A stretch of 64,000 nucleotides of DNA, taken from Candidatus Latescibacterota bacterium. GTDB lineage: Bacteria > Latescibacterota > UBA2968 > UBA8231. The notes under the pieces were generated by a model, which was not told where the DNA came from, ran no database searches, and saw only the letters and a program-made list of their open reading frames with translations. Shown here one piece after another: positions 10,133 to 52,803 of the stretch. Position numbers and translations under genes: made by a program. Location of the stretch: assembly GCA_036336855.1 (NCBI GenBank), contig JAYZFI010000014.1, positions 44,734-108,733 of the forward strand, in the 5' to 3' direction. Every line of letters starts with the position of its first letter. The stretch's first letter is position 1.

Positions 10133-10894
10133 CTACTGCGCGGCCGGCTGGTCCGCTCCGACATCGGCGAAGATGGCGGAAACGCCAGTGCCACATGCCG
10201 ATTCCGCGACGATGACGCCATCAAACCCGGCGAGCAGAGCCTTCACCGCATCCAACGGGAGCGCCCCGGTTCCTAGCGCAACACCATCTCCGACGTCGTT
10301 CACGTCGCCCACGCGAACGACGTGAGCACGATCTATTTCGGCTTCGAGAACCGCTGCAACATCTTCACCGGCCCCCAGCAAGCTCGCCGTATCCAGCGCC
10401 CAACGCACGCTGTCCGGCAGTTCTGCTCTAAGTTCTGTGAAGTCGTTGGCGACTTCTAGGGGAGTGTCGACCTCGGGCGCTAGACAGAACACAACATCGG
10501 GAATCCGCTCGACGAGCTCACCAAGCCCAGCTATCAAGTCCTCCCGTGCCTCGCCGTTGCGCGCGCCGCCGCGCACCACCACGTGGCGGATTCCGAGGGC
10601 GCGCCCCAGGTGTACATCCCACTCCAACTGCCTAAGGTTGTAGGCGCGATTACGCTCATCAGAGTCCCCCTTGCGTCCGGTGAGGGGCCGAATCTCGTAG
10701 TTGCCGAGGGTGATGCCCGCAGTGGCTAAGGCTTTGCGGATTCCGGTTACCGACCAGTCAGACTGATCGACGCTGCTGGTGGTACGGTGGCGGAAGAGTT
10801 CCACCGAGCCGCATCCGGACGCTACTGCTGCGGCGATAAGTTCGGGCAGGGCAGCACCTGGGTCGCAGGCGGCGCTGTAGACGATGCCCGTCAT
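10133..10894 (-). CDS. sugar phosphate isomerase/epimerase (xylose-isomerase-like TIM barrel)
   Basis: Start trimmed to MTGIVYSAA (beta-1 directly after Met), abutting the stop of the upstream PhyH gene. TIM-barrel pattern. Confidence 0.65.
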   Translation of the reverse strand: MTGIVYSAACDPGAALPELIAAAVASGCGSVELFRHRTTSSVDQSDWSVTGIRKALATAGITLGNYEIRPLTGRKGDSDERNRAYNLRQLEWDVHLGRALGIRHVVVRGGARNGEAREDLIAGLGELVERIPDVVFCLAPEVDTPLEVANDFTELRAELPDSVRWALDTASLLGAGEDVAAVLEAEIDRAHVVRVGDVNDVGDGVALGTGALPLDAVKALLAGFDGVIVAESACGTGVSAIFADVGADQPAAQ

Positions 10895-11637
10895 GAGGGG
10901 ATGCCATCCCAGTATTGCCACATGTCGTCCGGGGTCTCGAAGCGAATGTCATTGAGATCGCGACGTGATTGCCGAGCGATGAGGGCCATGCGGATGTTAC
11001 GCGCGCAGTTCTTACTGCCCGAATGCATGAGTTGGCCGTGCCAGAGGCATACCGTGCCCGCCAGTCCGGTGACTTCGAGTGCCTCGGGGAGCTCGAAAAG
11101 GTCTTTGGAGCTGCCGCCGGGGACGCTGAGCAAGGAGTGGGTGCGGAAGTATTCCGCCGCCTGCTGGTGGGTACCCGGCCACAGAGTGAAGCCACCGCCA
11201 CGGGGCTCGATGTCCTCCACATAGATGGTAGTACCGACGTGGAAAATCCCGACAGTGCCCTCGGGAACGCCGTTGGTCGGCGTGTAGTAGCCGTCCAAGT
11301 GACCGTGAACCGGCATCGTCCACTCGTCGTCCCCAGAAGGAAAGACGAGGTGCGGCCCTGGTGCGCCCGGGGTCAGCTGGCCCTTGCCCACTAGCTCCTC
11401 GGTGACTTCAAACACGGCGGATTCCATCACCGTCGACCGGATCGCCGGATGACTGCTTGGCACCGGCACTCGCGGTCCGGCTCCGACCCAGCTGTTGGGA
11501 TCGTCGCGGTCAGCCTCGATGCCCTCCCACAAGGCGTCACGGGCGGTGTCGATCTGTTCCTGGGAAAGCAGGTCGGTACGAGTGAGGTAGCCGTTTTCCT
11601 TGAAGAATGCGCGGTCGTCGTCGGTCAAGAAAGCCAT
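10891..11637 (-). CDS. phytanoyl-CoA dioxygenase (PhyH) family Fe(II)/2-oxoglutarate-dependent oxygenase
   Basis: Start trimmed to MAFLTDDDRAFFKENGYL (typical PhyH N-terminus). HxD...H facial-triad context (PVHGHLDGYY, LWHGQLMHSGS). Confidence 0.8.
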   Translation of the reverse strand: MAFLTDDDRAFFKENGYLTRTDLLSQEQIDTARDALWEGIEADRDDPNSWVGAGPRVPVPSSHPAIRSTVMESAVFEVTEELVGKGQLTPGAPGPHLVFPSGDDEWTMPVHGHLDGYYTPTNGVPEGTVGIFHVGTTIYVEDIEPRGGGFTLWPGTHQQAAEYFRTHSLLSVPGGSSKDLFELPEALEVTGLAGTVCLWHGQLMHSGSKNCARNIRMALIARQSRRDLNDIRFETPDDMWQYWDGIPS

Positions 11638-11825
11638 GGAAGCTCCAAGTGCAGCAATAGAGGCTATCATTGCTGATGTAGTAGGCGTATTAGACTATTG
11701 AATTAGCTCAACGACGCGTCCGCCGCCACTACGGAGTTCCGTCTACGCGTTTACACGCCCCCTGATCAGAAAGGCGATCCACTCATGCCCGAATCGGACG
11801 ACCCTCTCTTAGCCCGGAGTGAGCC

Positions 11826-20293: not shown

Positions 20294-21178
20294 ATGCGAC
20301 TGATGCTACTGGGCACCGGAACCCCGTCGCCGCTGGTACACCGCGCCGGTTCCAGCTACCTCGTCAACATCGCCGGTCAGAATCTGCTCTTCGACTGCGG
20401 CCCGGCGAGTGTAAGGCGATTATTGGAAGCCGGCCTCTCCCCGGTCGATGTGGACCGGCTGTTTCTGACCCATCTGCACTACGACCACTTCGTCGACTAC
20501 GGCTATCTCACCCTGACCCGCTGGGATCAGGGCGTCGGCAAGATCCCTGAGCTTCAGGTCTGCGGTCCGGCACCAATTACTGCCATGACGCGACGACTGT
20601 TCGGCGAGGACGGGGTGTACGGGCCCGATCTGGCAGCTCGTACTCAACATCCTGGAAGCCACTTCATATACGAGAAGCGCGGCGGCACGCTACCTCGAAA
20701 GCCGCCCCTTCCGGAAACAAGCGAAGTTGGAGACGGAGACCTCATCGAAGGTGACGGTTGGTCGGTGCAGGTCGCCGAGGTCATGCACTGTCAGCCCCAG
20801 ATCATCTGCTTGGCCTACCGGCTCAACGCCGGCAAAAGCAGCATCGTCTTTGGCGGTGACACCGCGCCTGTCGAGACGCTGACGAATCTGGCCCGGGGTG
20901 CGGATGTGCTGCTCCACATGTGCCATTTCATCAACGGCGTTGTCAACGACGAGCGTCTTACCACTTGTTGCTCTGGCCACCAGGATGCGGCGCGCACCGC
21001 ACGTGATGCCTGCGTGCGGACGCTGGTACTGGTCCATCTCACCGAGCAGCTGGAGACCGTCGGTGTGCGCGAACGTGTCGTACGAGAAGTCGGGGAGATT
21101 TTCGACGGTCAGGTGATTCTGGCAAACGATCTGCTTGAGGTTCCCGTGGGCGCTATTGAGACAGAGGCGATTCGATGA
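20294..21178 (+). CDS. MBL-fold metallo-hydrolase
   Basis: 294 aa. HxHxDH motif (LTHLHYDHF) plus downstream His/Asp ligands. ATGA overlap with the next gene. Confidence 0.8.
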   Translation: MRLMLLGTGTPSPLVHRAGSSYLVNIAGQNLLFDCGPASVRRLLEAGLSPVDVDRLFLTHLHYDHFVDYGYLTLTRWDQGVGKIPELQVCGPAPITAMTRRLFGEDGVYGPDLAARTQHPGSHFIYEKRGGTLPRKPPLPETSEVGDGDLIEGDGWSVQVAEVMHCQPQIICLAYRLNAGKSSIVFGGDTAPVETLTNLARGADVLLHMCHFINGVVNDERLTTCCSGHQDAARTARDACVRTLVLVHLTEQLETVGVRERVVREVGEIFDGQVILANDLLEVPVGAIETEAIR

Positions 21179-23480: not shown

Positions 23481-24302
23481 CTATAGAGCGCGGTTGTCCT
23501 CCGCGTAATTCACGTTGTTACCACCAATCTGCCAGGTGCCGCGGAACAGGGTACGTCTCAGCGGCGGCATGGACTCAATCTGCTCGTGACTGAGCCCGGT
23601 GCGGTGCCACTGCGCCCACAGAGAGTTGTAGCAATTGAACACGGCGCAGCGCGGATTATGAGAACCGGTCCAGCTGTTGGCAGCGTGCAATAGGCTCTCC
23701 GTGAAGATCACTGCGGAGCCGGCGGGACAGCTGTAATCCTCCATGGCGTTGTCAAGACTCTGCTGCCAGAGTGACCCCCCGATATTCGGCGTGTAGGGGT
23801 CAGGGCCACCGTAGTTGAAGTGCGCCTTGTGGGAGCCGGACAGAAACGATGTGCCTCCATGTCCCGACTTCACCTCTTCCAGCTCCCAAACCACTCGGGT
23901 CAGACCAGAGTATATCTTGCCGCCCGCGACTTGGTAGCGCATGGCGTTGGCCTGTTGCGGCGGTCTCACCACGTGTGCTAGTCCGGTGCCTGCGTCGGCA
24001 CTCCATCCCGCTGGGCGCACGGTGGTGAAGGAAGATTCGCAGCGGAAGCCGTAGCAGTCCTCATGTAGGAATGGGGGCTCGCTCAGAAGCGCGGACAGGA
24101 TATCGACGATGGTGGGATGATCGAGTAGTGTCTGCAGGTGTCCCCTGTAGCTGTTCTTGGCGCCGTCGTAGACCTCGGCTTTCATCTCCGCGATCTCCGA
24201 ATCCGAAAGAACGGCCGGCAGCAGAATCCAACCGCGCAGGTCGAAGAAGAACATCTGCTCGTCCGTTATGGGGTAGGCGCCGGTTGGGCCGGAGGCAGTC
24301 AT
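23481..24302 (-). CDS. phytanoyl-CoA dioxygenase (PhyH)-like Fe(II)/2OG oxygenase
   Basis: 273 aa. N-terminal (TDEQMFFFDLRGWILLPAVLSDSEI) and C-terminal regions with a PhyH-like pattern. Confidence 0.65.
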   Translation of the reverse strand: MTASGPTGAYPITDEQMFFFDLRGWILLPAVLSDSEIAEMKAEVYDGAKNSYRGHLQTLLDHPTIVDILSALLSEPPFLHEDCYGFRCESSFTTVRPAGWSADAGTGLAHVVRPPQQANAMRYQVAGGKIYSGLTRVVWELEEVKSGHGGTSFLSGSHKAHFNYGGPDPYTPNIGGSLWQQSLDNAMEDYSCPAGSAVIFTESLLHAANSWTGSHNPRCAVFNCYNSLWAQWHRTGLSHEQIESMPPLRRTLFRGTWQIGGNNVNYAEDNRAL

Positions 24303-35786: not shown

Positions 35787-36932
35787 CTATATATAACCGG
35801 TAGAGCCATCCGGGCGAACCGGACAGGTGCGTTGCCAATGAATGTACTCGTTGTCGGTGATCGCATCCTCGTTGATTTCGATGCCGAGACCTGGTCGATC
35901 GACTCGGAGCTCTAGGTAGCCGTCTTTGGGCATATAGGGCTCATCAACCCAGTTGTTCCATTCGGTGTCGGTCGGTAGGAGGTATTCGAGGATCTTGAAA
36001 TTGCAGGTCGATGCGGCGAAGTGGACGTTCACTGCAGTCGCAAGGGGACCCATGGGGTTATGAGGAGCGACACTGACGTAATGGGCTTCCGCGATGTGGG
36101 CGATCTTCTTCATCTCCAGCAGACCGCCGCAGATACAGACGTCAGGTTGTACAATGTCGGCTCCATTGCTAGCGATGAGATTGAGAAACTCGAAGCGGCC
36201 ATACAGACTCTCGCCCGTGGCCAGGGGGACGCGCATCTGCTCACGCAGTCGCGACCACTGCGGAATGTGCTCAGGTCGTAGCGGCTCCTCGTAAAACAAT
36301 GGATCGTAGGGCGCCAAGGCATCAGACAGCTGGAGGGCGCGAATGGGTTCAAAGATCTTGGCGTGGGGGTCGAAGGCAAATTCCCACTCTCCTGGAGTGT
36401 TGAGACGCAGCTCTTCGAAGTATTTCGCCGCCGCGGAGCAAACACGACCCCAGCGATCGGAGTCCGGATCGAGCTGGTATGGGCTTGTCTTGAAAGCGGT
36501 GAAGCCCCAATCCTCGTGGAGCCGACGCGCCTGATCTGCTGCCTCTTTGCCGTCGCGCCCCCCGATGCCGCGGTAAACGCGAATGCGATCCCGGGCATTC
36601 CCGCCCAGCAACATGTACACCGGGAGTCCCGCCGCTTTGCCGGTGATGTCCCACAGGGCGTGATCGAGAGCGGATATGGCGGGCAGCCCCACGCCTCCAG
36701 GCGGGAAGCGAAACTGCTGATGCAGCTTCATCATGATGTATTCGATGCGCCGAGGATCCTCACCTTGAATCATCTCGAAGAGGTAGTCGGCGATGGGCTC
36801 CACTGAAAGGTCAGGACCAGTGGAGTAGGCCTCGCCCCAACCATGGATGCCCTCATCAGTCTCAACCTTCAGAAGGGCCCGGGGGCGATTGCCGAAGCGA
36901 GCGACGAACGTTTTAATCGCGGTAATCTTCAT
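35787..36932 (-). CDS. enolase-superfamily sugar-acid dehydratase (D-galactonate/D-mannonate dehydratase-like)
   Basis: Start trimmed to MKITAIKTFVARFG, 5 nt after the GH88 stop. Barrel metal ligands and conserved His (...WGEAYS..., ...LLEMKKIAHIAEAHY...). Confidence 0.8.
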   Translation of the reverse strand: MKITAIKTFVARFGNRPRALLKVETDEGIHGWGEAYSTGPDLSVEPIADYLFEMIQGEDPRRIEYIMMKLHQQFRFPPGGVGLPAISALDHALWDITGKAAGLPVYMLLGGNARDRIRVYRGIGGRDGKEAADQARRLHEDWGFTAFKTSPYQLDPDSDRWGRVCSAAAKYFEELRLNTPGEWEFAFDPHAKIFEPIRALQLSDALAPYDPLFYEEPLRPEHIPQWSRLREQMRVPLATGESLYGRFEFLNLIASNGADIVQPDVCICGGLLEMKKIAHIAEAHYVSVAPHNPMGPLATAVNVHFAASTCNFKILEYLLPTDTEWNNWVDEPYMPKDGYLELRVDRPGLGIEINEDAITDNEYIHWQRTCPVRPDGSTGYI

Positions 36933-36937
36933 GATCG

Positions 36938-38311
36938 TTAACCAAAGAATGTCGGATACGGTTCGCCCAAGGCCTCGCGGCGGATCAGCAGAACCAGCTC
37001 CATGGTGTGATAGTCGCCCCACATGGCGGACTCTCCGCAAGGGATCTTGCGGCCGCGGGGGGTGTGATCCCAACCGTTGGGACGGTGGTAGATGGCATGC
37101 AGGGTGAGCCCCTGATGGCGCGCTGTCGTAGAAAGGTAGGGCTCTGTGAGCAGCGCGGCGGCAATGGTGAAGGCTGCGGCGCGGTAGCGACGACCCCGGG
37201 TGAGGTCACCTTTATCAACAAAGTAGTTGCCCAGTCTCAAGTAACCTTGGGCGCAGATAGCGGCGGCCGACGAGTCTAGGGGTTCGACGTCATTGTAGGG
37301 ATCAGACGTAGACCGCGAATAATCGCCAAAAGACGCGACGCTCGGTGCGCCCGTGTCCCAAAAGGGGACGCCGTCGGCAAAGCTGTGATGAATGTGGAAG
37401 TCGGCGGTGGCAACGGCGGCTTTCTCCATCATGGCCAGGAGTGGGAGGCGCTTTGCGTGGGGTTCGAGATCGGAGCTCTTCAGTTTTCGGATGAATTCCA
37501 GCTGCTCGGCGTAGCCGCATAGAATCCAGCTCAACCCCCTTGTCCAAGTGGAGAACGGCGAGTAGCCCTGTTGGGTGCTGGGGCAGCGATAGTTGCCGTC
37601 GTTGGCATTGAAGATGGATTCATGGACGACGCGGCCGGGCCGGTCGTAAGCATCGCGACCTTCTCCGTAGTAGACGTTGAAATTCGCTGTCGTCGTGGTG
37701 TGCTCGATGGCGCGACCGAGCAACGAGATCGGTTGATCTCCTTCGCCCATGAGCACGTGGCCGAGCTGGTGGGCAAGGTACAGGATGCGCAGAGTGCGAA
37801 TGGTATCGGAAAACAGGGAATGGGACCCGTTGAAGGAGTGGATGAAACCGCCTCCAGAGGCGATCTGTGTCCAGCGCGCAGCCTGAATCGCACCCGACAG
37901 TTTGATTGCCAGCTCGTAGAAGTCAAGCTCGGTTCGGTCCCCTGTGATACGCCCCTCGCGTATGAGACGGCGGAGGTTGCCGTACGTGGAAAGGTTATTG
38001 AAGCCGTGGTCGTGAACTCCGACGTGGGAAACATGTGGAGCCATGTTCCGAATGGTGTGACGGCGTCCGAGCTCGAGAAAGCTATCGTCGTCCGTCATGT
38101 CGTACTGGAGAATTGCGCATCCGTACTGAAACCCCTGAGTCCACTCCGTCCAGCCCCGGGTAGTGTAACGACCGTTGGTGGTGAAGACCGGAGTGCCGTA
38201 CTGCGGATTCCAAGTCGATTCCAGTGAACGGATCTTCTTGCCCGAGAGCTTGAGAAACCGATCGGTGGCGGGCAGGAGTTTCTTCGCAGTCTGGCGTTTG
38301 TCGATTTTCAC
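36938..38311 (-). CDS. glycoside hydrolase family 88 unsaturated glucuronyl/uronyl hydrolase
   Basis: 457 aa. Matches remembered Bacillus UGL signatures: HDHGF (UGL HDIGF catalytic Asp), STWTRGLSWILCGYA (UGL STWTRGQAWGIYGFA) and WGDYHTMELV (UGL WGDYYYLEAL). Confidence 0.65.
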   Translation of the reverse strand: MKIDKRQTAKKLLPATDRFLKLSGKKIRSLESTWNPQYGTPVFTTNGRYTTRGWTEWTQGFQYGCAILQYDMTDDDSFLELGRRHTIRNMAPHVSHVGVHDHGFNNLSTYGNLRRLIREGRITGDRTELDFYELAIKLSGAIQAARWTQIASGGGFIHSFNGSHSLFSDTIRTLRILYLAHQLGHVLMGEGDQPISLLGRAIEHTTTTANFNVYYGEGRDAYDRPGRVVHESIFNANDGNYRCPSTQQGYSPFSTWTRGLSWILCGYAEQLEFIRKLKSSDLEPHAKRLPLLAMMEKAAVATADFHIHHSFADGVPFWDTGAPSVASFGDYSRSTSDPYNDVEPLDSSAAAICAQGYLRLGNYFVDKGDLTRGRRYRAAAFTIAAALLTEPYLSTTARHQGLTLHAIYHRPNGWDHTPRGRKIPCGESAMWGDYHTMELVLLIRREALGEPYPTFFG

Positions 38312-47607: not shown

Positions 47608-49254
47608 ATGAATGGAGCCGACACCTTCACTGCCGCCCTGCGTGCCCACGATGTCGAGTGGGTCAGCACGTTGTGCGGCCATGGGCTCAACGAAGTGTAC
47701 GCCGCTTGCGAGCGCACCGGATTGCGCATAGTCGATACGCGCAATGAACAGACGGCCTCGTATATGGCAGAGTGCTGGGGCCGGCTCAGCGGCAAAGTCG
47801 GCGTCTGCGCAGTGAGCAGTGGCGTCGCTCATGCCAACGCACTGAGTGGCATCGCCAACGCCTACTTCGATGGCGCTCCCATGTTGCTGGTGACCGGCAG
47901 TGGTCCGCTCTCCACGGCGGGCAAGGGTCACTTCCAAGATTTCGACCAAGTGGCACTGGTGCAGTCGGTCTGCAAGTACGCCCGCACCATCGACGTGGCC
48001 GAGCGTATTCCGGAGATCGTACACGAGGCCATGGCGACGGCGGTGAGTGGTCGCCCCGGGCCCGTGCACTTAACCTTCCCCACGGATATGCAGGAACAGA
48101 TGGTGGCGGACTCCACGCCTCCCTCACCGCAGCCCGATAAGGCTCGGCCGATCCTGCCGTCGGATGATGCCGTTCGGCAGGCGGCGCGCTTGTTGGCGCG
48201 CAGTGAACGTCCCCTAATGATCACCGGGAGCGGCGTGTTCTACGCCTCGGCGGGAAAGGCCGTCGCGGACTTTGCGGCTGCGTACGCCGTGCCGTTTGCC
48301 ATTCCCATCTGGGATCGGGGTTGTGTGGCTCAGCCCCTGCCGGAATACCTCGGCGTCGTGGGCGCCGCAAGTGGCGGACCGCGTCTGCTGGAGGACGCAG
48401 ATTTAATCTTGCTGCTGGGAGCCGCTGCGGACTACCGAGTAAGCTACATGCAGGCGCCAGCCATCGACGTGCAGACCCAAGTCATTCGTGTCGATGTCGA
48501 TCCCGATCGCCTACACCATATGGGTCGGGCCACTCTCTCCGTGCTGGCTGATCCCGCCATGTTCCTGCAGCGTCTCATCGACGTGTGCGCGAAGGAACAG
48601 ATCGAAGGTTTCGAAGACTGGCTGCACGAAACGCAAAGGCGCAAGGAGGAGTTCAGTGCGGCGATCCGAACCAGCGGCCATGGCGGGTTGGATGCGCTCC
48701 AGCTGTGCGCGGCTTTGGACGAAGCACTGCCCGAGGACGCCGTCGTCGTAATCGACGGCGGTAACATTGGCCAGTGGGTGCATCAGACGTTGGGCCGGGC
48801 CCGATATCCGGAATCCTGGCTCACCTGTGGCGCCAGTGGCGTCGTCGGCTACGGGATCGCAGGGGCCATGGCTGCACGGGCTGGCTTCCCCCAGCGTCCT
48901 GTGGTTGTCATCTCCGGGGACGGCTCGGCGACTTTCAACCTCACCGACCTCGAACGCGCTGTTCGGCAGCAGCTGCCCTTCGTGATGATTGTGGCCGACG
49001 ACGAGGCCTGGGGGATCACAGTCTCCGGCCATCGCCAACACTACGGCAAGGCGATGAGCAGCGAACTCGGCCCCGTGGACTTCGCCGCCGCCGCTGAGGC
49101 TTTCGGTGCCATCGGCGCCCGCGTGGAGAGCTGCGAGGAGCTGATCCCGGCTGTTCGCCGTGGAGTCGCTGAGAGTCGTCCCGTTGTCATCCATGTGCGA
49201 ATTCCCGGCGGCATGCCGGGTGAGCAGGGCGCACACTCGGAGGCGTTGACATGA
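47608..49254 (+). CDS. thiamine-diphosphate-dependent enzyme (acetolactate-synthase / 2-ketoacid decarboxylase-like)
   Basis: 548 aa. N-terminal Pyr domain (VSTLCGHGLNEVY..., TRNEQTASYMA), central domain, C-terminal PP domain with the ThDP motif GDGS...N (ISGDGSATFNLTDLERAV). Confidence 0.85.
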   Translation: MNGADTFTAALRAHDVEWVSTLCGHGLNEVYAACERTGLRIVDTRNEQTASYMAECWGRLSGKVGVCAVSSGVAHANALSGIANAYFDGAPMLLVTGSGPLSTAGKGHFQDFDQVALVQSVCKYARTIDVAERIPEIVHEAMATAVSGRPGPVHLTFPTDMQEQMVADSTPPSPQPDKARPILPSDDAVRQAARLLARSERPLMITGSGVFYASAGKAVADFAAAYAVPFAIPIWDRGCVAQPLPEYLGVVGAASGGPRLLEDADLILLLGAAADYRVSYMQAPAIDVQTQVIRVDVDPDRLHHMGRATLSVLADPAMFLQRLIDVCAKEQIEGFEDWLHETQRRKEEFSAAIRTSGHGGLDALQLCAALDEALPEDAVVVIDGGNIGQWVHQTLGRARYPESWLTCGASGVVGYGIAGAMAARAGFPQRPVVVISGDGSATFNLTDLERAVRQQLPFVMIVADDEAWGITVSGHRQHYGKAMSSELGPVDFAAAAEAFGAIGARVESCEELIPAVRRGVAESRPVVIHVRIPGGMPGEQGAHSEALT

Positions 49255-50231
49255 ATCTCCCTTCTGAGGACTTCGAGTCTGTCCCCCATACTCGGCTGCA
49301 CGACTTCGTCGTGTCCGCCACTACTGAGGTGGGATTGCCGGAGGTACGTGCCCGGCTACTGGCGGACATGCTCATCGGCAACGATCTGCGCGGCGTGTTC
49401 AGCCACGGCACTGTGCAGGTGGCGACCTACGCCATCTTGATGCGGGATGGGACCTTGAATCCCCAGCCCGCTATCAGCGTGGTGCAGGAGACGGACGTGA
49501 GCGTGCTCATCGATGGCGATGGAGGCTTGGGTTACTTCCCCGCCCACGAGGGCACGCAACGCGCCATCCTAAAGGCTAAGGAGCGCGGCATGGCGGTCAT
49601 GATGACCCGTAATCACGGTCACTTCGGTGCCGCCGGACTGTACTCCAGGATGACCCCGGAACACAACTTGATTACCTATGTAACCTCCGGGGTGCAGTTG
49701 CACCTGAAGCCAGGAGACAAGATTTACTCTGCCGCCGGCGGGTCCCCCATGTCCTTTAGCACTCCCGCCGGCGAGGAAGCGCCACTGGTGCTCGACTTCG
49801 GGACTATGCATGACCTCTACGCCAGCAGTCCCCATCGGGACGAGATCGCACGCCTCGCTCCCGGTTTGGTGCTGCGCTGCATTGGCATGGGTGAAATCTG
49901 CCAGGCTTGGGGAGGCCTGTTGTCCGGCCTGACTTTGCACGCCGATCCCCCGCGGTGGGAGTGGCCGGGGGCGAACCAGGGCTCGATGGTCATAACCTTC
50001 CGCATCGACCTGTTCCACGACCCGACGCAGTTCCGGCAGCAGATGGACGAATACGTGCGCGCCGTAAGTGAGCTGGACCCCCTTGAGGGTTTTGAGCAAT
50101 CCTATGTGGCCGGCGGCGTCGAAGCCGATCGCGAGGTGCGATTCCGGGAGGAGGGCGTTCCCGTGGGCGTTGAGCACCGAAAGGCGCTGGAGGGATTGGC
50201 GAGCCAGCTCGGTATCGACGCACCTTTTTGA
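49251..50231 (+). CDS. Ldh_2-family (malate/L-sulfolactate/ureidoglycolate dehydrogenase-type) 2-hydroxyacid dehydrogenase
   Basis: 326 aa. ATGA overlap with the ThDP enzyme. Ldh_2 signatures (GNDLRGVFSHGTVQV, NHGHFGAAG). Confidence 0.8.
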   Translation: MNLPSEDFESVPHTRLHDFVVSATTEVGLPEVRARLLADMLIGNDLRGVFSHGTVQVATYAILMRDGTLNPQPAISVVQETDVSVLIDGDGGLGYFPAHEGTQRAILKAKERGMAVMMTRNHGHFGAAGLYSRMTPEHNLITYVTSGVQLHLKPGDKIYSAAGGSPMSFSTPAGEEAPLVLDFGTMHDLYASSPHRDEIARLAPGLVLRCIGMGEICQAWGGLLSGLTLHADPPRWEWPGANQGSMVITFRIDLFHDPTQFRQQMDEYVRAVSELDPLEGFEQSYVAGGVEADREVRFREEGVPVGVEHRKALEGLASQLGIDAPF

Positions 50232-50260
50232 TTCGATATCCGTCATTCAGAGGCGATCCA

Positions 50261-50422
50261 ATGTTGGTAGGTATCTCTCCGCTGTTGAGCCCGGATCTGC
50301 TGTCCATTCTCTGTCGAATGGGTCACGGTGATGCGACCGTGCTCGCCGGCGCCCATTTCCCCGGAGAGACAGCGAAGCACGGTAATATTAATCTGAAGAA
50401 GGGAGTGTCCCAGGTATCATGA
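50261..50422 (+). pseudogene. internally deleted remnant of L-fucose mutarotase (FucU/RbsD family)
   Basis: 53-aa ORF. N-terminal 35 aa (MLVGISPLLSPDLLSILCRMGHGDATVLAGAHFP) match FucU (E. coli [34 protein letters not shown]). C-terminal GETAKHGNINLKKGV matches the FucU C-terminus GERAKYGNILLKKGV. The roughly 85 central residues are missing in frame. Stop overlaps the start of the next gene (ATGA). Confidence 0.5.
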
Positions 50423-51441
50423 GCCAGATCTATGAGCCCGTGGCTGTACCGCGAGCGGACCGTTACCGAGTCTCGGTGGCGGACTATAAGAGCTATCAAG
50501 AGAACGGTTTCATAGTGGTAAAGGGCTTGGTGCCGGAGGCGGAGCACGCCGAGTTGCGGCAGCACGCCATTGACATCTTCGACGGCAAGACGCCGGTAGA
50601 AGGGGTGGAGTCGCCTGATCCGCAGGCGACGCCCCAGGAGCGGCAGGTGCGCATGACCCGAGTGCATATGCTGCACCGCGTTGACGCCCTGAGCGAGCGA
50701 TTCCTACTACACCCCCGGGTGCTCGACGTACTGGAAATCCTCATCGGTCCCGACGTGCTGGCGTTGCAGACCATGATGTTCTTCAACGCGCCCGGATCGG
50801 GAGGTCAGGGCTGGCACCAGGACGCTTACTACATCACCACTTACCCGGAAACCCTCATCGGCGCTTGGTTGGCCCTAGAACGGGCCGACGAGGGCAACGG
50901 CTGTTTGTGGGTGGCGCCGGGTTCGCACAAGGAGCCGATCCATCCCGATGCGGGCCGGGGTGCTCTGGTGCACACCAAAGGGGGATTCTCCGACGCCGAT
51001 CTCGTCACCGGGATTAGCGATCTTGACGATGAAGTGAACACTCTGTCTCGAGTCGCCCGCCAGCATGAGCCCAACATGCCGGTGGAGGTGCACGCCGGAG
51101 ATGTCATCTTCTTCCACTCTCACCTGTTGCACCGCTCGCATCCCAACCCATCTGACGCGCGATGGCGCCGAGCTTTCGTCTCCCACTACTGCAACGCCCG
51201 TTCGTGGGTGCCGTGGAACCACGGTGCCTCCTTCGAGGGGGACGCCGCCAACTACCTGCACATATTGGCGCGAGGCGCGACACAACTGCCTTTTGCCAAG
51301 CCGCGATTCGACACCCCCTGCGCCGCGCTCGAGGATTGGGAACCGACCGGACCCCAGCAGGTAGTTGCCAGCGGCGGCGACATGGAGATGCTGCCGGCGG
51401 GGACATCGGTATCGTTGGGTGAGGAGGGCCGGGTCGAGTGA
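50419..51441 (+). CDS. phytanoyl-CoA dioxygenase (PhyH) family Fe(II)/2OG oxygenase
   Basis: 340 aa. Strong SD AAGGGAG upstream. PhyH pattern (YQENGFIVVKGLV, WHQDAYY, HSHLLHRSHPN). Confidence 0.8.
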   Translation: MSQIYEPVAVPRADRYRVSVADYKSYQENGFIVVKGLVPEAEHAELRQHAIDIFDGKTPVEGVESPDPQATPQERQVRMTRVHMLHRVDALSERFLLHPRVLDVLEILIGPDVLALQTMMFFNAPGSGGQGWHQDAYYITTYPETLIGAWLALERADEGNGCLWVAPGSHKEPIHPDAGRGALVHTKGGFSDADLVTGISDLDDEVNTLSRVARQHEPNMPVEVHAGDVIFFHSHLLHRSHPNPSDARWRRAFVSHYCNARSWVPWNHGASFEGDAANYLHILARGATQLPFAKPRFDTPCAALEDWEPTGPQQVVASGGDMEMLPAGTSVSLGEEGRVE

Positions 51442-51906
51442 GGCAAGAGGCATCGAAGGCCTACGAAGAAGGATGGAGGGTTGAGACAGCACTAGAGAAT
51501 CGTTTTCTCGGCGTGTCCGATGCCAAGTCGGGAGCCGGGGAGAGATCAGCTTGCTGTGATGAACGGGAGCATCCTCGTCGACACCGAGAAGAACGAACGC
51601 GGTGGTAAGTCTGCAGGCCTGCGAGGTGAGCCCCACTGACGTCGATCTCGAGCCGCTGACCTACTGCCACCCGGACCGCACCCTCGGGCTGTCCGGGGCC
51701 GCTGTTCGGTAATCGCTAGCGCCGTTGTGACCGGCATGTCTCGGCGCGGTGGCGTCCCTGAGCACCCTCACCCTGATGCACTACGAGGCGAGTCGGTTGG
51801 CGGCGATCAAGGGGTGCTTCCTCAGCGCAGGGCTGGCCAATAAGGGAGTGCTGGGTCCGGAACAAAATGGTTGAGTGTAAAGGGAGCCGCCCAAGCGAGC
51901 GCGACT

Positions 51907-52803
51907 TCAGTAGAGCGTGCGGTAGAGCCTCTGAGGGTAGTCGCCTACCGCAGGATGCTGCCGTCCGAGGAGGTGGAAAACTGACACCATAGCATCCTTG
52001 GCTGCGCCGTTCCGGAAGTTGCGGTCCTTCTCGACGACTCCGAACCAGGCGACTAGTGCGGTGTCGTAGTCACCCTCCATGGCGGCGCAGCAACCGAGCA
52101 GGTACTGGGCCTCGGGATCATTCGGATTAACCTGGGCACGCTCGGCGCAGGCGGCGCGGCCCCCGGCGTCGTGGCACTGACGCACGAACTCGGTATGGGT
52201 CAGCAAGGCCTTGCCCTGCTCCCACTCCGTTGTCCCCTCCTCGATCTTTCCCACCCATTCCCTGACTTCCTCTTCGTCGCCACCTTGAAGTAGGCAGATG
52301 CGCGCGAGGCCAAGCAGGGCACCGCCATTTTCTTCGTCTTCCTCGAGGGCCTGATGAAAGAGCTGCCCGGCGCCGGCAAGGTCGCCGGAATCCATCCGTT
52401 GCCGGGCGGAATCGACGAGATTTGCCATCTCCTCAGCAGCGTTGGGCGGAGCCTCTGGCACGTGGCGGCGCAACATTTCCTCCACCTGCTCGCGGGGTAG
52501 GGCGCCGGTGAACTCGTCCACGAGTTGACCGTCCTTGATGATCTTGATCGCCGGGATGCTCTGCACCCGCAACGCCCTGGCGAGATCTTGGTTGGAGTCG
52601 ACATCGACCTTGGCCAGCAGCACGCCGGGTCCCAGTTCGGAGACAATCTCTTCGAGGACGGGACCCAAGGTCTTGCAGGGTTCGCACCATTCGGCCCAGA
52701 AGTCGACGACGACGACCTTGCCCTGCGACCCCTGAAGCACGACCTGCTCGAAATTGGAGGAGTCGACGTCGATGACGTTGCCCGGCGTGGTGTTCAGTTC
52801 CAT
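51907..52803 (-). CDS. thioredoxin-domain plus TPR co-chaperone (YbbN/CnoX-like)
   Basis: 298 aa. Thioredoxin fold with WCEPCK active site. C-terminal TPR-like helical region. Confidence 0.8.
   Translation of the reverse strand: MELNTTPGNVIDVDSSNFEQVVLQGSQGKVVVVDFWAEWCEPCKTLGPVLEEIVSELGPGVLLAKVDVDSNQDLARALRVQSIPAIKIIKDGQLVDEFTGALPREQVEEMLRRHVPEAPPNAAEEMANLVDSARQRMDSGDLAGAGQLFHQALEEDEENGGALLGLARICLLQGGDEEEVREWVGKIEEGTTEWEQGKALLTHTEFVRQCHDAGGRAACAERAQVNPNDPEAQYLLGCCAAMEGDYDTALVAWFGVVEKDRNFRNGAAKDAMVSVFHLLGRQHPAVGDYPQRLYRTLY

Follow-up and report, generated by a model that had tools for sequence, protein, structure and literature searches.

A 53-codon fucU remnant, probably left by a repeat-mediated deletion, in a decaying operon of marine Candidatus Latescibacterota

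The window, that is, the whole stretch of 64,000 nt analyzed here, contains a block of co-directional genes in which a very short open reading frame (ORF) lies between two intact genes. The first gene of the block encodes a thiamine-pyrophosphate (TPP) enzyme of 548 aa (47608–49254, + strand), recognized by the Pfam models TPP_enzyme_N, _M and _C, for which every NCBIfam match was under its cut-off. Its stop codon overlaps, as ATGA, the start codon of an intact gene for an Ldh_2 family oxidoreductase of 326 aa (49251–50231, +; Pfam Ldh_2, E = 6.1e-51). This protein shares 100% identity with NCBI MEE2657492.1, an entry from a metagenome-assembled genome of Candidatus Latescibacterota, and its gene served as the synteny anchor. 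The short ORF follows (50261–50422, +), and then an intact gene for a PhyH-family Fe(II)/2-oxoglutarate oxygenase of 340 aa (50419–51441, +), whose Pfam PhyH match (E = 2.1e-40; NCBI entry MEE2657494.1) spans positions 1–213 of the 213 profile positions. Farther downstream lies a pseudogene remnant of an MBL-fold hydrolase (51486–51874, +), and the block ends at a convergent thioredoxin-TPR gene (51907–52803, −), which is syntenic in the loci L068, L070, L071, L072 and L101. The window PhyH and Ldh_2 had no exact entry in the gene-position index, and both are present in the protein collection.

The short ORF was identified as a derivative of fucU, the gene for the fucose mutarotase FucU. The mechanically called ORF extends over 50228–50422, with a TTG start and 64 aa, while the ATG at 50261 gives a product of 53 aa, MLVGISPLLSPDLLSILCRMGHGDATVLAGAHFPGETAKHGNINLKKGVSQVS. 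This start codon coincides with Met1 in all FucU orthologs aligned, and it is also the start used in the NCBI annotation, where the peptide is entered as a 53-aa RbsD/FucU domain-containing protein (MEE2657493.1). The alignment with the orthologs, together with the Pfam, NCBIfam and 2wcv matches, indicates that the 53 codons and the TGA consist of FucU codons 1–37 (50261–50371, +) fused in frame to codons 129–144 (50372–50419, +; AKHGNINLKKGVSQVS). The Pfam profile RbsD_FucU (PF05025) matched with E = 4.2e-10 and 40.6 bits (gathering score, 25), with remnant residues 4–36 lying on profile positions 2–34 of 138 only. The NCBIfam model for L-fucose mutarotase (NF011949) matched with E = 4.8e-13. 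In the comparison with the E. coli FucU structure (2wcv; E = 9e-13), two stretches were found: remnant residues 1–37 on FucU 1–37, and residues 32–50 on FucU 121–139. The C-terminal stretch alone matched E. coli FucU weakly (E = 1.6), and it matched the syntenic FucU of L073 at 15 of 19 residues (E = 4.6e-5). Residues 1–37 and 38–53 are thus homologous to FucU 1–37 and about 125–140, respectively, and both parts of the peptide match FucU, the C-terminal one significantly against the L073 protein. In this respect, the first-pass annotation, which had described an in-frame internally deleted FucU derivative from the letters alone, is borne out. Its sizes need adjustment: the missing middle is real and the frame is kept, but 91 codons are gone instead of about 85, and the retained N- and C-terminal ends comprise 37 and 16 residues instead of about 35 and 15.

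What is left falls far short of the complete domain of about 140 residues, codons 38–128 of the 144-aa orthologs being absent. The remnant keeps the MGHGD and GN-LKKGV motifs and the syntenic position of the intact FucU genes. The changes E25A, I26T and D30G are found in the N-terminal part, and Y40H, I44N and P51Q in the C-terminal part. As regards the catalytic GH and D context noted at first pass, the GHGD motif and His22 are kept, but Asp30, which is invariant in 42 of 42 family members, is now Gly, and a conserved Tyr has become His40. The score of 49.3 bits against NF011949 is far below the equivalog cut-off of 141 bits, whereas the intact FucU of L132 scores 181.5 bits. Judged from its sequence, a product that lacks about two-thirds of the domain, the invariant Asp30 and the conserved Tyr is predicted to be no mutarotase.

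The corresponding loci of relatives, whose Ldh_2 proteins are 65–77% identical to that of the window, clarify what the gene was before. Nine syntenic loci (L069–L074, L101, L131 and L132) carry an intact FucU directly after Ldh_2, and its length is 144–152 aa in every syntenic relative with a gene at that position. The short form is confined to near-identical (≥ 99.8%) copies of one population; the ORF does not represent an independent small-protein family. In L131 and L132, the order is Ldh_2–FucU–PhyH with orthologous PhyH genes (65% identity for L131), and L132 is the closest relative (Ldh_2, 77% identical). TPP enzyme orthologs lie upstream of Ldh_2 in L071, L072, L073 and L132. The FucU neighbors in relatives include a galactonate-dehydratase-family enolase and an MBL-fold hydrolase; PhyH (75% identity) is followed by the enolase in L130, and the order PhyH-like–enolase–MBL is seen in L072. 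The ancestral operon would thus have had the order TPP enzyme–Ldh_2–FucU–PhyH–(enolase)–MBL hydrolase. The proposed fucose link of the ancestral operon was upheld to the extent that the operon carried a genuine fucose-mutarotase-type gene, as the L132 score indicates. A search of the GTDB genome contigs with PhyH gave 63 loci at 47–70% identity, none with FucU or a shared neighbor.

In the window, the loss is not limited to fucU. When the MBL proteins of L070 and L072 were used in tblastn, four pieces in three frames were found (51489–51554, 51556–51594, 51596–51697 and 51752–51865). The start Met of this pseudogene is gone, two frameshifts are present, about 146 codons are deleted internally together with further small deletions, and the metal motif THCHxDH has decayed to TYCHPDR. 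The same structure was found in the independent assembly L139. As for the enolase-family gene of the relatives, no remnant was found in the locus, and the enolase-superfamily matches in the window are only distant paralogs elsewhere. It thus appears that the sugar-handling part of the operon is decaying, with fucU, the MBL gene and the enolase gene lost and the TPP enzyme, Ldh_2 and PhyH genes intact. This operon-wide decay was absent from the first-pass annotation, which treated the relic by itself. We also considered whether PhyH was inserted recently between FucU and MBL, leaving the deletions as scars. This was rejected, as an intact FucU precedes the orthologous PhyH in both L131 and L132; the G+C content of PhyH (0.62–0.65), which matches that of its neighbors, also speaks against a recent transfer.

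The alignment to full-length FucU placed the deletion junction at a Gly-Glu-Thr codon repeat. The L132 FucU reads CCC GGC GAG ACG ATG at codons 34–38 and ACG GGA GAG ACG GCG AAG at codons 125–130. Each breakpoint thus falls in one copy of the in-phase repeat GGC GAG ACG / GGA GAG ACG (identical at 8 of 9 nt), with an offset of 91 codons (273 nt) between the two copies. In the relic, the corresponding stretch is CCC GGA GAG ACA GCG AAG, where GGA GAG ACA (50363–50371, +) is the sole surviving repeat copy. L069/L101 and L073 have one matching copy each. Deletions between short direct repeats are a classic source of spontaneous bacterial deletions, and the present case resembles them in that one copy of the repeat is left at the junction and two copies flank the segment in L132; it differs in that both repeat copies are read in one frame as the same tripeptide, which keeps the product open. 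As reconstructed from relatives at 65–77% protein identity, the two sites GGN GAG ACN would have lain, respectively, after the conserved HFP motif and within the MTGET-AKYGN motif, which is likewise conserved. The comparison shows that one copy plus the intervening DNA was removed, through slippage or illegitimate recombination at these repeats, giving a 273-bp deletion and leaving the frame intact automatically. Since both breakpoints lie in the in-phase repeat, such a deletion is necessarily in frame. The in-frame outcome thus follows from the mechanism, not necessarily from selection, and the kept frame, which had been taken as a sign of a retained coupling ORF, loses this meaning. Around the junction, a promoter and terminator scan gave no signal (0 promoter-like sites), nor did RNA folding (z-score, 0.15).

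Three kinds of data bear on the constraint acting on the remnant. One is that its T26, G30, H40, N44 and Q51 were seen in none of the 42 full-length family members. Another is that changes specific to the window lineage affect 5 of the 53 positions of the FucU part and 6 of the 319 positions of Ldh_2 (Fisher test, p = 0.012), corresponding to an approximately fivefold faster evolution of the remnant than of the adjacent Ldh_2, on small counts (5 versus 6 changes); for the other lineages pooled, the corresponding values are 2.2% and 1.6%. The last is that only three SNP sites exist among the 1512 nt compared, located in the relic, in its upstream spacer and in the MBL remnant (p about 0.05), with none in Ldh_2 or PhyH among the near-identical copies compared. 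The sole polymorphism inside the remnant ORF is the non-synonymous A25V. Taken at these small counts, the sequence comparison shows apparently relaxed constraint on the remnant. No frameshift or internal stop codon is present in the remnant, against at least two frameshifts in the MBL remnant. At the density of the latter, about 0.8 frameshifts are expected in 162 nt and the probability of none is about 0.4, and the intact frame is statistically unremarkable. As a separate observation, the contrast between the frameshift-free remnant and the frameshifted MBL remnant might mean that selection has acted to some extent to keep the frame open.

Based on these results, we consider it probable that the 53-codon ORF is a decaying fucU remnant, made by repeat-mediated deletion in a decaying operon of a marine Candidatus Latescibacterota lineage. 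The alternative that survives best is that selection keeps the remnant open as an exapted coupling ORF needed to start PhyH. The stop codon of the remnant does overlap the PhyH start, as had been reported: in the ATGA at 50419–50422, the TGA (50420–50422) and the ATG (50419–50421) share nucleotides. The remnant also retains the start region of FucU itself, with a well-spaced GAGG Shine-Dalgarno-like motif (50250–50253, +) 7 nt before the ATG; the intact FucU genes of relatives have purine-rich Shine-Dalgarno-like strings upstream (GGAAG, AGGAG and AGAAAG). The strong Shine-Dalgarno sequence AAGGGAG that the first-pass annotation assigned to PhyH inside the relic exists as a string (50399–50405, +), but its distance from the PhyH ATG is 13 nt and it is made up of the conserved Lys-Lys-Gly codons inherited from the FucU coding sequence: in this region, AAGAAGGGN is also found in L071, L072 and L131–L132, and AAAAAGGGC in L073. 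The spacings in the operon are 6 nt for the TPP enzyme, 7 nt for Ldh_2, 7 nt for the relic and 13 nt for PhyH. PhyH thus has no such motif at the usual 5–10 nt (the nearest GGAG is at 13 nt), whereas the orthologous PhyH genes have their own sites (GAGG, 9 nt upstream, in L132; GGAG, 8 nt upstream, in L131) and spacers after FucU (+28 nt and +5 nt, respectively, without overlap). A PhyH gene without a well-placed site would fit a real dependence on the upstream ORF, as would the absence of stops and frameshifts in the remnant despite its divergence, in comparison with the MBL remnant. In addition, strict coupling was reported for 13 of the 14 gene pairs with ATGA overlaps that were tested (Huber et al. 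2019, PMC6728339), and the present junction resembles such termination–reinitiation pairs in its co-directional genes, its 4-nt overlap and a downstream start that lacks a well-spaced Shine-Dalgarno sequence. The differences are that the upstream partner here is a remnant, that the coupling is predicted, and that the overlap is absent at the two orthologous FucU–PhyH junctions.

Against selection for coupling, the in-frame outcome was forced by the in-phase repeat, the absence of frameshifts is expected by chance at the above probability, the open frame is sampled in one population only, and 4-nt overlaps are routine in the window (at least nine gene pairs). The A25V polymorphism is compatible with it and adds no support. 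Moreover, the relatives give no support for an ancestral coupling preserved by the deletion, as first proposed: FucU and PhyH do not overlap in L131 and L132, so that the ATGA overlap is specific to the window lineage. A displaced PhyH start was also considered, as the ATG of L131 aligns without gaps to an ATC in the window; this reading was dropped, the L132 start ATG ACG CAG giving an equally good alignment with the window ATG AGC CAG. We searched the literature on pseudogene remnants kept for translational coupling and found no direct precedent. We therefore regard the selected coupling ORF as unlikely. The same low likelihood is given to an extended form, in which PhyH, once fucU had gone, would have been left with neither a spacer nor a ribosome-binding site of its own and would depend on the old FucU start, with the mini-FucU ORFs of loci L136–L138 as further coupling remnants. 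Under the preferred reading, that of a decaying remnant, coupling is plausible as a by-product: with GAGG, ATG and an open frame kept, the remnant is probably still translated, and, as it ends in ATGA on the start of a PhyH gene without a well-spaced Shine-Dalgarno sequence, ribosomes ending on it probably reinitiate on PhyH.

It is very unlikely that the remnant is a functional small protein that folds or binds a partner, for instance, another FucU-family oligomer. The peptide is annotated as a protein by NCBI, and other in-frame ORFs joining N- and C-terminal FucU parts (P0034, P0098, P0118 and P0144) were found in unrelated operons at loci L136–L138. However, their deletion ends differ (after about residue 28, 30, 35 or 37), which indicates independent accidents rather than a family, and each ORF seen stays within a single 50%-identity cluster. 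They were found with an N-plus-C query that returns in-frame cases only, so that ascertainment bias is involved. The remnant has lost invariant residues, the relatives at 65–77% identity are all full-length, and AlphaFold2 gave no confident fold (pLDDT, 59; pTM, 0.25), although this single-sequence run is weak evidence.

Within a marine population, the deletion has gone to fixation. Besides the window, five assemblies have a call for the exact 53-aa peptide, and one more (L064) has the A25V variant. For four of these six further assemblies (L064, L133, L134 and L135), the DNA identity and the junction were compared, and all were 99.8% identical to the window over 523–643 nt, with the same junction. 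They derive from the ZHAN22-1 metagenome, ERZ833000 and two Tara Oceans runs, and the identical peptide was also called in a Logan assembly. An assembly or binning artefact, in which a collapsed or chimeric contig gives a false deletion, is hardly credible when the same junction recurs in these four assemblies from different projects with flanks matching on both sides at ≥ 99.8%, even though the source is a metagenome-assembled genome and some short contigs with the locus have unrelated ends (bases 1–100 of L133 and 1–231 of L139).

The 53-codon remnant is thus a case of ordinary operon decay. A parallel is given by the trpC remnants of Chlamydia species, which are pseudogene remnants in partly decayed operons (PMC3937554). 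Both are catalytically dead leftovers beside retained genes of the same operon, but the window remnant arose by a clean, frame-preserving internal deletion and is still annotated as a protein. A lesson for annotation is that the public RbsD/FucU domain-containing protein is in fact a dead remnant, and no adjacent MBL-fold pseudogene appears in the public gene calls examined. A lesson for method is that a remnant may have an open frame without selection if the deletion joins in-phase repeats. If it is true that PhyH translation needs the remnant, this would be a tidy natural case in which a pseudogene has taken on a new role as a translational leader. As for the organism, a widespread marine population of Latescibacterota is shedding a mutarotase, a dehydratase and a hydrolase while keeping the TPP enzyme, Ldh_2 and PhyH.

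The FucU-derived ORF lies between the Ldh_2 gene (49251-50231) and the gene of a PhyH-family oxygenase (340 aa; ATG at 50419). Mechanical ORF calling gives 50228-50422 (+), with a TTG start and 64 aa. The biologically sensible start is, however, the ATG at 50261 (+), which opens an ORF of 53 codons: it lines up with Met1 in all the orthologous FucU proteins of the alignment, it is preceded by a GAGG at a spacing of 7 nt, and the NCBI annotation uses the same start. The stop codon (TGA, 50420-50422) shares bases with the PhyH ATG. Two separate blocks of FucU are matched by the peptide: relative to the E. coli FucU structure 2wcv (E 9e-13), residues 1-37 correspond to FucU 1-37 and residues 32-50 to FucU 121-139. 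The Pfam RbsD_FucU match (E 4.2e-10) covers profile positions 2-34 only, and the NCBIfam L-fucose mutarotase match (E 4.8e-13) reaches 49.3 bits, below the equivalog cut-off of 141 bits, which the FucU of the closest relative, L132, exceeds (181.5). This two-block match is far above chance and bears out the FucU origin proposed in the first-pass annotation. In a Candidatus Latescibacterota MAG, MEE2657492.1, MEE2657493.1 and MEE2657494.1 are exact matches to the Ldh_2, relic and PhyH proteins, respectively; NCBI calls the second an 'RbsD/FucU domain-containing protein'.

The Ldh_2 protein served as query in a metagenome scan for syntenic loci. In L069, L070, L101, L071, L072 and L073/L074, whose Ldh_2 proteins are 65-73% identical to that of the window, the gene directly after Ldh_2 encodes an intact FucU (144-152 aa). 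Protein searches with PhyH and Ldh_2 led to two further loci: L131, with the order Ldh_2 - FucU (144 aa) - PhyH (Ldh_2 68% and PhyH 65% identical; FucU-PhyH spacer, +5 nt), and L132, with the order TPP - Ldh_2 - FucU (144 aa) - PhyH (Ldh_2 77% identical; spacer, +28 nt), where TPP denotes a thiamine-pyrophosphate enzyme gene. Thus, the relatives have intact orthologues at the same position rather than the short ORF, an outcome that favors a deletion derivative and upholds the core interpretation of an internally deleted FucU. The identical relic peptide was called in five other assemblies, including a Logan run, ERZ833000, and Tara Oceans ERR598971 and ERR868512, and a variant with the single substitution A25V occurs in the ZHAN22-1 metagenome. 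Four readable contigs show 99.8% identity to the window over 523-643 nt, with an identical junction: the deletion is fixed in a natural population and is not an artefact. Two of the metagenome contigs carrying the locus, both short and of low coverage, have ends unlike the window (L133:1-100 and L139:1-231); these are probably chimeric contig ends, not real rearrangements.

The relic reads TTC CCC GGA GAG ACA GCG AAG at the junction. The intact L132 gene has CCC GGC GAG ACG ATG (P-G-E-T-M) at codons 34-38 and ACG GGA GAG ACG GCG AAG (T-G-E-T-A-K) at codons 125-130; a 9-nt GGN GAG ACG is present at both breakpoints, 91 codons apart, with 8 of the 9 nt identical. The N-site copy is kept in L069/L101 and the C-site copy in L073, while the window lacks one copy and the intervening 273 bp. 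Such a loss is characteristic of slippage or illegitimate recombination, and an event of this kind between the short direct repeats would have deleted the middle of fucU. A deletion between them was bound to be in frame, since the two copies encode Gly-Glu-Thr in an identical phase; therefore, the preservation of the frame says nothing about selection.

The remnant evolves without FucU constraint. Its residues T26, G30, H40, N44 and Q51 are found in none of the 42 full-length family members, in all of which Asp30 is invariant. When a lineage-specific change is defined as a position where a single sequence stands apart from the other six orthologues, the window lineage has 5 such sites among 53 in the FucU part versus 6 among 319 in Ldh_2 (Fisher p = 0.012); the corresponding values for the remaining lineages pooled are 2.2% and 1.6%. 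Among independent contigs, only three sites vary in the 1512 nt compared: 50244 in the spacer upstream of the relic, 50334 in the relic (A25V), and 51719 in the remnant of an MBL-fold hydrolase gene. None is located in Ldh_2 or PhyH, and the probability of all three avoiding these genes is about 0.05 by our own calculation.

The MBL remnant, at 51486-51874 (+) downstream of PhyH, is a second pseudogene of the same operon and is not among the public gene calls examined for the locus. Its start Met is gone, two frameshifts are present, the metal motif has degraded from THCHxDH to TYCHPDR, and an internal deletion has removed about 146 codons, in addition to further small deletions; the structure is identical in the independent assembly L139. 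The MBL gene is the last gene of the operon in L069/L101, L070 and L072. Relatives carry an enolase gene (galactonate-dehydratase family) between PhyH and MBL: L072 has the order PhyH-like - enolase (L072:8331-9518) - MBL, and in L130 a PhyH 75% identical to the window's precedes the enolase (L130:758-1429). The gap between PhyH and the MBL remnant in the window is 44 nt (51442-51485), and no enolase trace was found there. We infer that the ancestral order was TPP - Ldh_2 - FucU - PhyH - enolase - MBL, and that the window lineage lost the mutarotase, dehydratase and hydrolase and kept TPP, Ldh_2 and PhyH. In other lineages, the decay of the region takes a different course: in L068 (L068:392-1515), Ldh_2 is directly followed by a convergent thioredoxin gene, without FucU or MBL, and L070 (L070:77-1069) and L127 lack TPP, their upstream 830-aa glycosyltransferase-like gene being split into several frames.

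The gene after FucU in L071 and L072 (L071/L072:7482-8288) encodes a PhyH-family protein (268 aa; Pfam E 4.5e-10) that barely resembles the window PhyH (50419-51441); its nearest window relative is 23481-24302 (-), at 31.5% identity. This operon position may have received a non-orthologous replacement, or the gene there may have diverged extremely. Elsewhere in the window, two PhyH-like, one MBL-fold and one enolase-superfamily paralogues occur (10891-11670 (-), 20294-21178 (+), 23481-24302 (-) and 35787-37073 (-)).

The first-pass annotation also held that the relic was retained as a coupling ORF, with a strong SD (AAGGGAG) for PhyH. Several features count for coupling. The relic still has a well-spaced GAGG and ATG, and its end forms an ATGA on the PhyH start. 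The PhyH ATG has no GGAG closer than 13 nt, against spacings of 6, 7 and 7 nt for TPP, Ldh_2 and the relic, while PhyH in L132 and L131 has its own motifs about 8-9 nt upstream without FucU overlap. Of 14 ATGA pairs tested in a published study, 13 were strictly coupled (PMC6728339). Judged from the sequence, passive coupling of PhyH to the relic is likely. That selection keeps the relic as a leader is rather improbable; retention for coupling is unproven, and both the repeat mechanism and the lack of overlap at the orthologous junctions weaken it. The supposed SD consists of conserved Lys-Lys-Gly codons, also present in intact orthologues. Stop codons overlapping the next start are routine in this genome, at least nine co-directional pairs in the window overlapping by exactly 4 nt (e.g., 47608-49254/49251-50231, 42615-45056/45053-47545 and 20294-21178/21175-22896). 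The absence of frameshifts is unremarkable as well: taking the MBL remnant as a guide (about 2 in 390 nt), we calculated an expectation of about 0.8 for the 162-nt relic, with a probability of none of about 0.4. A scan and fold around the junction revealed neither a promoter or terminator nor an unusual RNA structure. The peptide is unlikely to function as a mini-protein: its single-sequence AlphaFold2 model has pLDDT 59 and pTM 0.25, invariant residues are lost, and this short form is limited to one population.

The public protein set contains further in-frame N-plus-C mini-FucU ORFs (P0034, P0098, P0118, P0144, P0012, P0052 and P0065). Three were placed in unrelated operons: L137:4001-4165 (54 aa), L136:360-530 (56 aa) and L138:585-761 (58 aa), the last overlapping the next gene by 4 nt. 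The L137 order (SDR, FAA hydrolase, MR/MLE dehydratase, mini-FucU, amidohydrolase_2, aldo-keto reductase) is a textbook fuconate-type, classic non-phosphorylative fucose cluster, and three contigs carry it, one of them exceeding 1 Mb. Because the breakpoints differ in every case, the N-plus-C query detects in-frame cases only, and aberrant forms are over-represented after clustering at 50% identity, we interpret these ORFs as independent accidents that befell a dispensable gene. A truncated FucU ORF of 91 aa was also seen in three NCBI assemblies (GCA_0412943x5; L065:2831-3202, L066 and L067); similarity to E. coli FucU runs beyond its stop codon to residue 115, suggesting another pseudogene with a frameshift or stop. 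P0007 (278 aa) has two complete FucU domains fused in tandem in one polypeptide.

As for the substrate, the hint of fucose or a 6-deoxy sugar is only partly supported. The combination of a mutarotase, an acid-sugar dehydratase and a hydrolase resembles the logic of non-phosphorylative fucose catabolism, a pathway outlined in PMC13406643, but the enolase and MBL proteins fall below every NCBIfam equivalog cut-off. The relic locus itself is a case of ordinary, well-resolved gene decay, and forms part of a wider decay of the operon.
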